Positions 45,001 through 51,000 of a stretch of DNA of 64,000 bases are shown here, piece by piece (positions within the stretch are counted from its first letter, which is position 1; every line of letters begins with the position of its first letter). The position numbers are program-made. Origin of the DNA: Escherichia coli O157:H7 (GTDB lineage: Bacteria; Pseudomonadota; Gammaproteobacteria; Enterobacterales; Enterobacteriaceae); the NCBI RefSeq assembly GCF_013167455.1, contig NZ_CP038328.1, one strand, 5' to 3'.

Positions 45001-48000
45001 GCGTATCCAGCGGAGGGTGGTCAAATCCCTCACCAATAAGTCTGCCTGTTGACAACAAAATTCGAGGAGAATCGGGAGGAAGAGCATTCAGCCCGGATAT
45101 CAGCATCGCACGCTTTTTTTTCGATAGTCGACCATGGAGAATAAAGGGAGACAATTTCAGTGAATTCATCACTGATGCTATCTCATCCAGATGATCTGTA
45201 CGTTCAGTCAGTACCAGAACTTTTCGCCCCTGCCCGAAAGCTTTCATGGCTTCTTCAGCTATCGCCACCGTTCTGTCATGATCCAGAGCAATTTCTCTGA
45301 AAATATCCTGGATTCTCGCATCCGATGGTAAATGACCAGATGTAAAACGGGAACGGATCAGTACCTCCAGATTATGTGGGCTTTCCTTCGGGCGGACCGC
45401 TGTATGGCGAATGGCACCACAGTACATAAAAATAATGGGATGCAGACCATCCCGTCGGATTGGTGTTGCCGTCAGGCCAAGCAGATATCTGGCATTCGTT
45501 TCCTTCAGAATCGCAGAAAATGAAACCGCGCCAATATGATGGCACTCATCCACAATGATTTGCCCATAATTCCTGACCAGAGGTTCAACTTCTCCTTGTC
45601 TGGATATGGACTGCACCACCGCAATATCAATATTGCCACAGGGTTTATGTTTACCTCCCCCGATAATACCAATACTGTCACCGGCCTGCAGAAACACCGC
45701 GAGACGCTCCTGCCACTGCTTCAGCAATTCAGTCCGGTGTACCAGTATCAGTGTATTCACTTTCCGCTTGGCAATCACTGCCGCTGCGGTAACTGTCTTA
45801 CCAAAAGCCGTTGGCGCACAAAGCACACCAGTGTCATAACGGAGTAATGCCGAAACGGCCTCTTCCTGCTCCGCTCTGAGGTTTCCCATAAAAACGGCAT
45901 TACATTCCGTCCCGGCAAATCGTTTATCGATTAATTCTGCAGCAATATTGTTGTCCCTAAGGAAAGATAATACGCTGTCCAGACATCCCCGGGGCAACGC
46001 AATGTGTTGCGGGTAATTCTCCGCACAACCTATAACACGGGGCTTATTCCAGACTGACATACGCATTGCCTGAGCCTTATAAAACTCAGGGTTCGGAAAT
46101 GCTGCCAGCCGAATAAGTCGGTTAATCAGCACCTGAGGTAATTGCGCTTTTTCGAAATAGATCTGGTTTGCCAGCGTGATTTTCAGCGGTTCTGCAATAG
46201 AAATATTCAGTCTGTTTCCTGATGATTTTTTCTCTTCCCACGGCGTACCCAGGTCTTCTTCGTTGATAAAATTCACATCCAGAGGATGGATACTCCCTGT
46301 AGCCCGTAATATCGTCGGTTCAATATCCTGCACATTCATCGGGGTCACCGATACAAGAAAAGCCCACTGATCAGGATAAGGCTGGAGATTCATATCAACA
46401 AAAACGCTTCCCCCCAATTCACGCGGTCTTTTTTGCAGAGGTAACGCTATGAGATTACCAAATCCCCCTTTTGGCATAGTATCCTGATTAGGAAATAATC
46501 GGTCATAAGACCCCAATCGCAGCTGTCGGGTCCGACTACACGTATAGCTAATAATAGCAGTCCCCAGACGGCGAGCTTCGCGGGCCGAAACTCGTGAGGC
46601 AAAAAATATCCAGACATGCGCCCCCTGACGTGAACGGGATATTTCCAGCGCAGCAGGTACACCCAGCTCATCACAGGATCGCATGAATGCGGATGCATCC
46701 TTCTGCCATTCAGCTTCATCAAAATCAACTGCCAGAAAATAACAGGAATCATCTTCCAGCAACGGATACATCCCGACAGTATGGGTACCGGCCAGATGGT
46801 GGTAGATGACGAGATCGGATACAGGAATCAACTGACGGTGAGCGCAGTCCCCACATTTTATCCGGGGTTTACCGCATATTCTCGCCTGCCATTCGTTAGC
46901 GCAGGCAGGAGAGTACCCTGATTTGCCGCTGGTTTTACTTTCCCATCTAAGTGCCCATACATCATCACGCCCACGAAACAACCGACGAAATAATGCAACC
47001 TTCTCGTCGGTGGATAATACAGAAACGCGCTGCACAGGAGTCTGCGGTTTACGTCGCCATTCAATCCCATGAGCTTCAAGTAATGAGACCAGACGGGCAT
47101 TTTCTGCCCTCAATGCAGCTAATTCATCACTGTCAGATTTATGAACCATATTCGTTACCTGTATCCGATCCACTGAGGCACCACGGCAGAAATTCGGGTC
47201 CCCTACACTGATGACAAAGCGCCCCGCCCTCTTCTGCCTATTAACTCAAGCACCTCCCAACAACTTACAGAAACTTAATTCTAATACCTAATACAGCTGT
47301 AATTCAGTTATGTCGTGGTCGGCCCCGGTTACTTTTTTCGGGAAGCCTGCTACGCCTCAGAATAATACCGTGTTCTTTCTGATCCTGTTTGGCCAGATAG
47401 CTAAGGGCGTAACGTAAGTCGTCTACCGCAGATTTATCACTATAGTGAATTACGTGATCGATACGCACCGGGTATTTGTCTTTAGCCCTGCACAGGTGAA
47501 AATAACCCTCCCCTTCCGTGATCCGCCTCCAGATATCTCCCAGTTGCCTGGATATCCGATAAGATTTGTTGTGACGTTGCCCATCCAGGTAGCCGATAAA
47601 ATGAATATGAAGTCCCTTGTTTGACGTATATTCCATTACCCAGTAATATCCCGCCAGCATCGTTTGGGTTTCACTAAGTAAGCGGTGCATTTCAATACAC
47701 ATACTGTGCCTACAGGAATGACCAAAACTGGGCGTGTCTTTCCTGTAGGCAAAATCAATTCTGAAAGGTAACAGTTTAGAAAAACGTTGAAACAGACCTT
47801 CCATGTGTTCATTCACGTCTTTCAGAATCATGAAGTCCATTTCGTAATTGGGATTAGCATTATACATTTTATAGTCCTTACTTTATAAAAGTTACAGGAA
47901 GGTGGAATTACATAAATACTGAGAGTACAGAAACGCCGTACCGCGGCATTAATAAACGAGGTAACCAGCAGCACAGACAACCTGATAAAACTGTTTCGTA

Positions 48001-51000
48001 TTACCTCATTACTCCAAAGAGGTAATATTTCAGAGTACAGTAAGACTCACTTAAACTGAGGACCAGTACGAATTACAATGGTAAAAACACACCTCATAGA
48101 ATTGAGTTTAAGGAAGTACCATTCAATCACTTACAGGAAGTAATCTGACATTCACAAAAGCCAGTATCGGGTAGCCACAGGCAACACCGCTATTAATACT
48201 TCTGTACCATTAAGTAAAAACAGCGACCCAGCTTAAGGCCTCTACAGATATTTAACTTCACCATAAAAATGATGGTATACAGACCATACCCCACACACCA
48301 TAAGAATATTATTTCATACAGGAAAGATTATATTTTTTCATACCTATAAACTGTAACAGAGCCATAACATACTCTAATAGTGTTCCGGTACGTAACCAGT
48401 GTTAAGTGCGTACAAGACAACATAACAGATCACATAACTTCCACTAATAATACTAATTAACCTAAATTATTTATTGAACACGAAAACAATGAAGGCCCCA
48501 CCTCACCTCAGACTAAAGCCGACAATATCCTGAGCAACACTCTATCCAATAGTAAATAGTGGTTACACCAGTTATATTTACTGACTGACCTGTACCAGAG
48601 TTTTCTAATACAACGCTGACATGGTAAAGACATTAGTCTCCTCCGCAAGTAGCAGAGGAGACTATATGTACTCAACGATTAAGTCGTTCAGAGGTCAAAG
48701 TTAGGTGCGACACACAACGTTTTTCCCTCAATAACCGGTACAACTCTGTTTTGTTCATACAGTAAATCCAGTAACCAGTTGATTTTATCCTTTTTCCGGA
48801 AACGGTTCGGACCACGCTGTAAAATGTCATTTTTTTTCATACAGAGGATCCCCTTCTCAATACAATAGCTTTTTATCCAGTTGAAAAGTTCAAGCTCCTC
48901 TGGAATGAGTCGCACAGGTACGGTCAGGGCAGAGTTGTCAAAAGTTAACGGATTAGACAACCGCACATACTCATTACCGTACCATATTGCTAATTCTCTC
49001 GCCATTTCTGCAGTGTAAGGGGAAATCTCCCCCTCTTCACCGCTCGAATGGTAAATAAGTCCTGCCAGTCTTGCCATATACTCTGCATTTTTAGCAGCAT
49101 ATTCCCGGCAATGTCTTAAAGGCCCCAATCCCCCCAGCTTCGATTCCACATCATTGTAATAATCCGTCCAGATTCTGGCAGCCTGAGGAGAAAAGTGAAG
49201 GCAACGTCGTTCACCACTCATCGCCAGACTTTCATCAATAAGCTCATTGATCATTATCCTTGTCCCCTGCGTTGATGTTGGTTGACACATCAAAAACCTT
49301 GCATGATGTCCTGACGTTTTCACAATTTCTTTTTTTCGCGTACAAAAACCTTTGTGGTAAACATCAGGCTGAATCATCACCGATATCGTCAGTCTTGGCT
49401 CCTTCAAATTAATTCCGGGAGATGATTTCCTGTCGATGAAAAGAGAACCTCCATCCCACAAAGTGTTAATAATTCCCAGTTTACTCATGGCCCGGCTGTC
49501 AAAAATTACCCCCCCTTCACTGGATACAAGAGCAAAAGAGCGATTGCTATCGGAGTAATATTTTAACATTCCCTCTATCGTTGTCTCATTAAAAATTGTT
49601 CGACGTATCTGCGGCGGAACAGGAGGTTTATTCAGATGCGTTTCAAGCTCTGATTCTGTTGCCTTGTAATCTTTACCGGCACGAATCTCTTTATGAAATT
49701 TTGATTCCAGCGCTTTTTGTTTTTGCTCCCATATTTCCTTTTCTGTACTGTAATTCTCAACCAGTTTCGCGTATTCATCCGCCAGGGCTTCATCCCTGAG
49801 ATAAAATGCTTTCATAAACACTTTATCCACGGTCGTTTTCCTTTCACCGGAATCAGCCAGAATCAGAGAGTAAAGATTAACAGGCCCATGTAAATTTCCA
49901 GGTCTGCACACGTCAATCTGATTCTGACAGGCAATTGAGATCGCTGTTAATGCGGATGTTGCCACCATAGCCAAAGGTGCCTGTGTATTTTTTTGAGTTT
50001 CAATTATTGCATTTCTCACCAGCGGTGGTAGTGCATATATCGGATAAGGATTTTCTGGTGCAAGTAAGCACATAAAAGCCTCTCTTTTCATTAATGGGTT
50101 AGTAAAATAGCAGCAAATCCCGCTACAATAGCGAAAATAGCTGCTATTCAGACCTGATGCTCTGAGAAATACAGAGCATTTGTAGATCTGATGTTTAATA
50201 AACCGATAAGGTTAATTCAGTGAAGACTGTATTATTCACCACGAAATATCATTCATATTTCTCATTCTTAATACCTCCGGAAATTATTTCACTAATACCT
50301 TTCCCCCGGTCTTTTCCCTTTCTCCAGAACCATAGTGTAAATATTAACGGCCCCACGTAAATTTCCGGGACTGCATACGTCAACCTGATTCTGACAGGCA
50401 ATTGACATCGCTGTTAATACTGACATTGCAACCAGAGTCAGAGGTACTTGTTTATTGTATTGAGCTTTAATTATTGCCTTCCCTATCATTGATGGTCATG
50501 CATATACTGAATACGACATATCCGGTTTGATGTAAGGCATAAATGCTTCCTTTTTCGTAATACGTTTCGGTTATAGCAGCAATTACCGCTACAATAGCGA
50601 CAATAGCTGCTCTTTCAACAATGAATGCTGGAAATTCTGTTTATCAATTAAACTTCTGGCTAAATTGTTCTTATGCTTCTTTTTCCTCCTGAGGTGATCA
50701 CGTGATGACAAAAACTTATCTGCTCATGGTCATATCTGAAGAAAGCGTATGTCTCACTTCGTCATTAACACCTTTGACTGCTGATCTGGCAGGTACAGTA
50801 TGTAAAGTAAGCCATTCGTCAATAGCTGATGAACGCCAGCCCACAGAACCACTACCAAGACGTACCGGCCTGGGGAAGGTTGCATCGTAGTATTTCGATA
50901 ACGGATTCATTTTTTCGTAAATTGTCGAACGAGATATACCTAACAATTGGCTCAGTTCAGGCATCCGTAAGATGCGTGAAGGAGTCCTGCAGTGTCCGGA

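Follow-up and report, generated by a model that had tools for sequence, protein, structure and literature searches.

The 820 nt that separate a YfjI-like gene from an inovirus-type Gp2-like gene in Escherichia coli O157:H7 (positions 47868–48687 of the 64,000-nt stretch analysed here, the window) are real non-coding DNA, best read as mainly the control region and long 5′ leader of the downstream Gp2-like gene, an option absent from the first-pass annotation of this DNA. The interval is a composite of two unrelated halves, the 3′ end of yfjI and the control region of the Gp2-like gene, and the second half opens with a 33-nt site that is found at nearly all examined Gp2-like genes of Escherichia, Citrobacter, Erwinia, Yersinia, Limnobaculum and Rouxiella. 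Comparative sequence evidence favours, with moderate confidence, the reading of this site as a promoter/operator, followed by a long leader, of the Gp2-like gene (ECs1304 in strain Sakai) and probably of iee, the gene for the insertion sequence (IS)-excision enhancer IEE.

An interval in two halves

The interval was originally described as free of open reading frames (ORFs) of 60 aa or more, and this is correct; the longest complete ORF, which begins with TTG on the minus strand (48508–48675), has 55 aa. It is second by size among the stretches of the 64-kb window that lack an ORF of at least 60 aa, the largest of which (26074–27051) contains the STAXI RNA and the third largest (3197–3828) Esr41. 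Because 51% of shuffles of the interval likewise have no ORF of at least 60 aa, the absence of ORFs is within chance for non-coding DNA of this composition, and it is the length of the untranslated gap that is unusual. The A-richness of the plus strand was also borne out: this strand is A-rich and G-poor, and the gene-sense minus strand contains 37% T, 25% A, 22% G and 15% C. The interval is AT-rich throughout, with a GC content of 31–41% in 200-nt windows, and coding-like composition is absent on both strands. Its parts, in gene-sense order, are as follows.

48634–48664, minus strand: terminator-like hairpin, 13-nt arms, 92% complementary, 5-nt loop, 23 nt past the yfjI-like stop codon
48470–48633, minus strand: trailer segment that moves with yfjI and not with the Gp2-like gene (variant comparison)
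48437–48469, minus strand: conserved 33-nt site, TAATTTAGGTTAATTAGTATTATTAGTGGAAGT (family-wide comparison and profile)
48468–48455, minus strand: imperfect palindrome AATTNN-GG-TTAATT within the site
48455–48447, minus strand: nonamer TAGTATTAT within the site
48452–48447, minus strand: −10-like TATTAT within the site
48441–48437, minus strand: GAAGT within the site
48204–48436, minus strand: variable leader segment, rich in indels, with terminator-like hairpins at 48301–48272 and 48240–48225 (variant alignment and terminator scan)
47868–48203, minus strand: conserved leader core up to the Shine-Dalgarno sequence (SD; TAAGGA) and ATG of the Gp2-like gene (variant alignment)

The hairpin just past the YfjI-like stop codon, reported in the first-pass annotation, is present with arms at 48634–48646 and 48652–48664. 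It has 13 pairs, 7 of them G-C, and is followed by the tail ATGTCTTTAC, a loose U-tract, and it passes a permissive terminator scan on the minus strand. Every yfjI-carrying variant has it, with no compensatory changes, and it probably terminates or stabilises the yfjI-like transcript. The trailer that follows is 89–98% identical to the window in yfjI-bearing variants and unalignable (43–49%) in three loci, L009, L013 and L014, all of which have a different upstream gene. The ~220 nt next to yfjI (48687–48470) would thus form the 3′ end of the yfjI-like transcription unit, with the hairpin first and then the trailer. The remainder of the interval follows the Gp2-like gene and not yfjI: in the same three loci homology to the window resumes ~30 nt before the 33-nt site and runs to the ATG, and it is because this homology persists despite the different upstream gene that the leader is assigned to the Gp2-like gene.

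The conserved site and the leader of the Gp2-like gene

The site was defined by comparison with Gp2-like genes at 37–78% protein identity from Erwinia, Citrobacter, Yersinia, Limnobaculum, Rouxiella and several metagenomes. Each of these genes is preceded by a gene-free gap of 349–1446 nt, and the 33-nt block is the sole sequence shared with the window that was detected in these gaps, its conservation starting abruptly at the 5′ edge. Across lineages the consensus is (G/T)AATT(A/T)AGGTTAATTA(G/A)TATTATT..(G)GAAGT, within which the nonamer is TAGTATTAT in the window, TAATATTAT in L020 and L022, and TAATGTTAT in L033 and L035. A hidden Markov model (HMM) built from 10 lineages and searched on both strands of 342 kb of fetched loci and of the window gave one match per Gp2-like locus, always upstream of the gene and on its strand (E from 7e-7 to 3e-3), and a single match in the 64-kb window (48469–48437). 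There were three exceptions: in L024 (37% identity) the version of the site is too diverged, in L017, which has a decayed-looking gene, the block is cut through, and L010 is a 1.6-kb contig that may stop short of the site. The site thus adjoins Gp2 proteins down to about 37% identity. Alignment to homologous islands, a check proposed in the first-pass annotation to learn whether the interval is conserved or replaces a gene, found only the 33-nt site strongly conserved and no gene at this position in any relative examined; outside Escherichia no conservation beyond the site was found.

Viral carriage of the site was considered and rejected. An 18-nt form had 7 matches in viral contigs, six of the contigs being unrelated, which is about the roughly estimated chance number, and only L029 has the gene. 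Three of the six unrelated contigs are microvirus-like (IMG/VR contigs L026, L027 and L031; ~4.1–5 kb; ORFs were read only for L026) and carry AAGGTTAATTAATATTAT on the strand opposite their genes, a match judged to be chance because the number of viral matches is about that estimate. The yfjI-yfjJ region of K-12 was likewise set aside as an equivalent and is uninformative, its gap being only 152 nt and YfjJ sharing just the HUH motif region with ECs1304; no copy of the 33-nt site was seen in that gap.

The Escherichia leader between the site and the ATG is ~570 nt long, U/G-rich and C-poor. Its mean pairwise identity was taken among 11 variants in 30-nt bins (the frameshifted gene of L018 somewhat lowers the ungapped gene baselines) and is as follows.

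48473–48444, first bin, most of the site: 0.94
48443–48414, second bin: 0.81
48413–48204, variable leader: 0.06–0.71
47868–48203, last ~335 nt: about 0.88 (bins 0.78–0.95)
Gp2-like gene: 0.82 at third codon positions, 0.87 at all positions

On these values, the upstream part of the leader appears to drift freely, and the last ~335 nt appear to be mildly constrained, about as conserved as the gene. The length of the interval ranges from 820 to about 1210 nt among variants through indels of roughly 190, 40 and 18 nt; the variable part of the leader has insertions of these sizes elsewhere, and the hairpin at 48301–48272 is deleted in L004–L006. IS elements also occur here: IS2 is inserted in the leader at 1761–2989 of L007 and 1682–2910 of L008 (~47930–47975 of the window), 65–105 nt upstream of the Gp2-like start codon, and IS1203 splits the Gp2-like gene itself in PV15-279 (L001). 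The IEE-encoding locus is itself a frequent IS target.

The distance from site to ATG is of two classes. It is short (70–267 nt) in Erwinia, two Yersinia, Citrobacter, Rouxiella and a soil metagenome contig, and long in the window (596 nt), in L018 (747 nt), and in Limnobaculum, L019 and L023 (955–1149 nt). Because the site sits 70–267 nt from the ATG in other genera, and because the long leaders of different lineages are mutually unrelated in sequence, the Escherichia long leader is, by this comparison, an expansion particular to its lineage that separates a fixed site from the gene. Composition also differs: the Escherichia leader has T 38–41% and C 16%, the opposite of the short leaders (124–240 nt) of L020, L021, L022, L032 and L035, which are A/C-rich with G at 11–13%. 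An A/C-rich, very G-poor composition is typical of Rho-utilisation sites. The 1.0–1.1 kb leader of another enteric lineage (L019, 2880–3060 and 3629–3769, and L023) is different again, with at least 3 copies of YTGTAATTCTAYC just past the conserved site and, in L019, a plausible 46-aa ORF; the iteron-like TGTAATTC was spotted there by eye, and the L019 repeats, compared with shuffles, are not significant. Several loci (L032 at ~2940–2955, L020, L033 and L035) also share a weaker element some 50 nt upstream of the ATG, a possible operator or proximal −10 element. Yersinia intermedia has it as the perfect palindrome GTAATTAATTAC and others as GTAA-N3-4-TTAC or AAAAATTACA; the corresponding sequence of the window is TGTAATTCC.

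Immediately before the gene the sequence varies and the predicted pairing is kept. In minimum-energy folds of positions −60 to +6, an upstream CU-rich segment pairs with the SD in nine of the ten non-Escherichia lineages, through sequences that differ by lineage (CUUCUUCC/GGAAGAA, CGUUCCUC/GAGGAACG and AUAUCUUUUG/CCAGGAGAUAU among them), so that pairing is maintained despite changed sequence. The probability of being paired over −15 to −5 is 0.64–0.91 in these lineages, versus a mean of 0.48 in control ORFs (50 from the window, 2% of which reach 0.8). Because SD-occluding hairpins recur in nine of ten lineages from different sequences, the region just upstream of the ATG is, on the predicted folds, a functional mRNA leader. 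A long-range pairing, GGUCCU/AAGGAC, is also predicted in the leader of the window, and its two segments are invariant among variants. Long leaders with SD-sequestering hairpins are associated with translational repression of toxic or tightly controlled genes.

Readings of the site and of the interval

Under the favoured reading, positions 48469–47868 would belong to the downstream Gp2-like gene ECs1304 and probably also to the co-directional iee. The TATTAT of the site would serve as the −10 element, and the palindrome AATTNN-GG-TTAATT would fill the spacer and bind a conserved regulator, for which the candidates are the AlpA-type helix-turn-helix (HTH) protein always encoded nearby and the Gp2 protein acting via its invariant RGRPR tail. 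Transcription would begin in the conserved GAAGT, the transcript would cross the untranslated leader before reaching the gene, and pairing of the SD region would hold translation down. In L022 (TTGATG-16-TATTAT) and L032 (CTGACT-16-TATTAT) the only sense-strand sigma-70-like promoter of the gap uses the TATTAT of the site, and since the spacer is conserved while the −35 is not, a bound regulator at the site is suggested. A regulator element between −35 and −10 has precedent in the loading sites of Q-type antiterminators and of Pseudomonas aeruginosa AlpA, a roughly 140-residue, Q-like antiterminator (PMC9371919). AlpA-dependent antitermination, considered on account of the shared name, was itself rejected, as P. 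aeruginosa AlpA was judged, with no sequence comparison made, to be no relative of E. coli-type AlpA (PF05930), and it is kept only as an architectural analogy.

Several observations weigh against this reading. A conserved −35 element is lacking, and a promoter would not typically combine a fully conserved spacer with a variable −35. A promoter scan found no sense-strand promoter or acceptable −35 in the interval of the window, nor did it find one at the site in L020 or L035. At the −10-like hexamer, L033 and L035 have TGTTAT, which is poor as a −10. The SD hairpin of the window (CCUU/AAGG) is weak, at −4.5 kcal/mol and a pairing probability of 0.63, and the presence of IS2 within the leader in at least two strains implies that an intact leader is dispensable for the host. 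Finally, the Sakai coordinates and ECs1303/1304 are absent from the searched supplements of an RNase E CLASH (crosslinking, ligation and sequencing of hybrids) study and of a Sakai RNA-seq/Ribo-seq study.

Doubtful, yet the best surviving of the alternatives, is the proposal that the 33-nt site is the cleavage or origin site (a double-strand origin or oriT-like site) of the Gp2-like protein itself. The gene-sense strand would be nicked near TAGTATT|AT, starting rolling-circle replication, mobilisation or single-stranded DNA (ssDNA) production from the excised island, perhaps with the assistance of the YfjI helicase-like protein and the IEE primase-polymerase/helicase. The nick site could overlap the promoter of the gene, as in rolling-circle plasmids and viruses with circular Rep-encoding single-stranded (CRESS) DNA, and the two readings of the site are compatible because rolling-circle origins often overlap the rep promoter.

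Features of the protein would suit such a role. ECs1304-type proteins keep an HUH motif and conserve RIDF, H86-x-H88, two near-invariant tyrosines in Y152...Y156-L-A-K and a C-terminal RGRPR suited to AT-rich DNA, and their fold matches, which are weak, are closest to Rep and NS1 nuclease domains, so that ECs1304 is likely, from these motifs, to be an HUH nuclease. Its Pfam matches are sub-threshold (PF23343 REP_ORF2-G2P at 2e-4, 22.1 versus 27.8 bits; PF11726 at 2e-3), and the gene called YagK-like at first has the RefSeq name 'inovirus-type Gp2 protein'. The RGRPR end (window 47304–47330) occurs in nearly all 23 aligned Gp2-like proteins, with R180 invariant and G181, R182, P183 and R184 at 90% or more; it is an AT-hook-like tail that is absent from annotations.

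An HUH nuclease requires a cognate site, and the only conserved sequence found near the gene is the 33-nt site, which hardly varies even between loci whose proteins are down to 37% identical, the pattern seen with CRESS nonanucleotides. The nonamer, whether TAGTATTAT, TAATATTAT or TAATGTTAT, resembles those nonanucleotides, and the strand to be displaced is T-rich and C-poor. A conserved nonanucleotide of the NANTATTAC/TAATATTAT type was thus found, as a resemblance only; TAATATTAT is that of the genomovirus SsHADV-1, whose Rep cuts between positions 7 and 8 (PMC5399927). Such likeness of an AT-rich 9-mer can arise by chance, as the viral matches to the 18-nt form illustrate. No stem-loop presents the nonamer in the 10 lineages (75-nt ssDNA folds of −0.6 to −7.1 kcal/mol, 9 of 10 no better than shuffles), iterons are not significant, and the 64-kb window has no second copy of the site as a terminus. 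In the collections searched, the Gp2-like protein was not the Rep of any small rolling-circle plasmid, phage or inovirus and occurred only on islands and large replicons. A scan of genome contigs with the Gp2 protein returned only 3 loci, all Escherichia-like.

A broader proposal built on this alternative is unlikely. The site would be the nick/origin site of an unstudied small HUH family, recognised through its genomovirus-like nonamer without a stem-loop and forming, with YfjI and IEE, a rolling-circle or ssDNA-producing module of the excised island, and the 'inovirus-type Gp2' HUH proteins with the RGRPR tail would be core genes of P4-integrase/AlpA-type enterobacterial islands. Of the three suggestions made at first for the interval, a replication origin thus survives in part: the classical form, with iterons, DnaA boxes, integration host factor (IHF) sites or a nonamer stem-loop, was not found, whereas an HUH nick or origin site retains the conserved site and the rolling-circle-like nonamer. 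The other two, a heavily decayed gene and a non-coding RNA, gained no support.

It is improbable that the interval is mostly the remnant of a gene once located between yfjI and the Gp2-like gene, or neutral filler. The distal leader is indel-rich and conserved less than synonymous sites, long leaders arose independently elsewhere (that of L019 with its plausible ORF), and IS insertions are present without obvious harm, all of which would suit a remnant or filler, but the last ~335 nt are conserved like the gene, a gene at this position was found in none of the relatives examined, and coding-like composition on neither strand. The ten longest stop-free pieces gave nothing in Pfam at E up to 1. 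For the six-frame similarity search that the first-pass annotation had envisaged as a means of revealing an obvious pseudogene, a pseudo-protein of all 23 stop-free pieces of at least 25 aa was compared by phmmer with 1.84 billion representative proteins, and only 15 short Cys/Phe/Leu-rich ORF calls were returned; the five that were read appear, judging by their sequence, to derive from homologous copies of the same locus.

That the interval encodes a free-standing non-coding RNA, either a small RNA (sRNA) or a larger structured RNA, is very unlikely. The presence of STAXI and Esr41 in two of the window's three largest ORF-free gaps, the first and the third, the strong strand asymmetry of composition over about 600 nt and the two terminator-like hairpins on the sense strand had made such an RNA worth considering, as had the fold of the antisense strand, which is marginal against shuffles (z = −2.15). 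The sense strand folds no better than shuffles (z = −0.56), and the covariance-model search recommended earlier found no family: the best Rfam match in the interval is BsrC, at 20.4 bits versus a gathering threshold of 38 (E = 1.6). The three gathering-level matches of the window lie elsewhere (Esr41 at 3481–3554, minus strand; STAXI RNA at 26759–26910, minus strand; 5′ ureB sRNA at 33631–33909, plus strand). In nine sequences aligned over the last 350 nt, RNAalifold gave a covariation term of −0.12, and 3 of 92 pairs had changes in both partners; the ~88% identity of these sequences limits power. In addition, the hairpin at 48301–48272 is deleted in several variants and its surroundings are full of indels, only the 33-nt site is conserved outside Escherichia, and the searched CLASH and RNA-seq supplements have no entry for the locus.

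Least probable of all is an iteron-based origin of the theta type immediately 3′ of the helicase-like gene, as in phage-inducible chromosomal islands (PICIs), where pri-rep is followed by ori, or like crr of P4: the AT-rich interval does directly follow the DUF3987 (YfjI) gene, and the island has alpA and a P4-type integrase, but the repeats of the interval are families of 2–3 short copies at long spacing and within the shuffle range (the top 7-mer count is 3 versus a shuffle mean maximum of 2.9), it contains no DnaA or IHF boxes, the strongly constrained element travels with the Gp2 gene even without yfjI, and K-12 yfjI has only 152 nt after it.

Genomic setting and known systems

The genes on either side of the interval, and the one beyond, are co-directional.

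48688–50091, minus strand: YfjI-like gene (Sakai ECs1303), the upstream neighbour; Pfam DUF3987 at E = 1e-76, RefSeq 'YfjI family protein'
47304–47867, minus strand: Gp2-like HUH gene (Sakai ECs1304), owner of the leader; RefSeq 'inovirus-type Gp2 protein'
44789–47173, minus strand: IS-excision enhancer IEE (Sakai ECs1305); Pfam AEP-TOTE at E = 2e-98 and helicase domains, named from the Sakai record

The DUF3987 match upholds the original identification of the upstream gene as YfjI-like. The sequence is 100% identical to that of many O157:H7 genomes, and the counterpart of the interval in Sakai is NC_002695.2 1377415–1378234, inside the integrative element SpLE1, a large integrated island of 86 kb in which ECs1302 (an AlpA-like HTH protein), ECs1303 (YfjI/DUF3987), the gap, ECs1304 and ECs1305 follow one another. 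ECs1305 is IEE (PMC9943667; bioRxiv 10.1101/2023.06.07.543989), and the gene labelled 'TOTE conflict system AEP primase' at 44789–47173 of the window is this same enhancer, an archaeo-eukaryotic primase (AEP)-type primase-polymerase fused to a helicase that begins ~130–155 nt downstream of ECs1304. In the IEE papers searched, no mention was found of the gap or of ECs1304 as a possible partner of IEE. Between alpA and yfjI, a 65-aa ORF at 50292–50489 on the minus strand resembles the YfjI-like N-terminus (…LTAMSIACQNQVDVC…); its equivalent in other strains is a RefSeq partial DUF3987 gene, and it has the look of a relic left by duplication or recombination of the 5′ end of yfjI.

Of 5426 complete E. 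coli genomes, megablast found the interval in 1562 and blastn in 1586, at 78–100% identity. Among the matches listed, no annotated feature lies under it except for small overlaps with the end of yfjI and 3 nt in H70, whose apparent match under a terminase gene was dismissed as an 85-nt fragment at a rearrangement junction with an annotation overlap of those 3 nt. An isolated 85-nt leader piece (window ~48142–48227, 91% identity) is found at L036 2501–2585 (strain PEC41, near ecpR), at the junction of a truncated terminase gene and an IS3 fragment and far from any Gp2-like gene. Phage records have no similarity to the interval, and plasmid records match it only in Escherichia.

About 30% of complete E. 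coli genomes, O157:H7 included, therefore have 0.8–1.2 kb of unannotated DNA immediately before ECs1304 and iee. In enterohaemorrhagic E. coli (EHEC), IEE is the driver of IS629 excision and of genome deletions, and no account of the control of its locus was found in the papers searched, such that the 33-nt site offers a handle on the switching of ECs1304/iee and on the role of the widespread 'inovirus-type Gp2' HUH proteins of genomic islands. If a nick/origin module were true, the IS-excision activity of IEE would be tied to an island replication or mobilisation system; if the site is an ordinary promoter with a drifting leader, the result is useful annotation and little more.

With regard to known systems, the arrangement can be compared with several classes of control regions and origins. 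Like Q-binding elements, the P. aeruginosa AlpA element and MerR-type operators, the site places a conserved element in the spacer before a −10-like hexamer, and like spacer-regulated promoters it has, downstream of the hexamer, a conserved initially transcribed sequence and then a long leader with terminator-like hairpins. Unlike Q/AlpA systems, no Q-like protein was identified here, and the spacer is 16 nt, whereas MerR operators have 19–20 nt. The resemblance of the leader to SD-sequestering long leaders lies in the predicted pairing of an upstream CU-rich segment with the SD, which persists across genera despite sequence change; in the window itself the hairpin is weak.

In CRESS and other rolling-circle replicons a nonanucleotide, for example TAATATTAC or TAATATTAT, lies in the intergenic region before the Rep gene. 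The locus described here likewise has an HUH-type gene preceded by a non-coding region with a near-invariant AT-rich site and a genomovirus-like nonamer, but it lacks a nonamer stem-loop and clear iterons, is chromosomal and single-copy on a large integrated island, and encodes a protein that was found as the Rep of no small replicon. The PICI origins and those of Staphylococcus aureus pathogenicity islands (SaPIs) consist of iterons flanking an AT-rich stretch 3′ of pri-rep; like them, the interval directly follows a helicase-like gene of an int-alpA island, and it differs in its lack of iterons and in that the conserved element segregates with the downstream gene and not with the helicase-like gene. 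The intergenic region of the Ff phages is about 500 nt long, hairpin-rich and immediately upstream of gene II, and the Ff plus strand is T-rich. Although the interval has no similarity to phage records and an ordinary hairpin content, and the kinship of its protein to phage gene II proteins is remote, it resembles the Ff region as a long non-coding stretch directly upstream of an 'inovirus-type Gp2' gene with a T-rich gene-sense strand.

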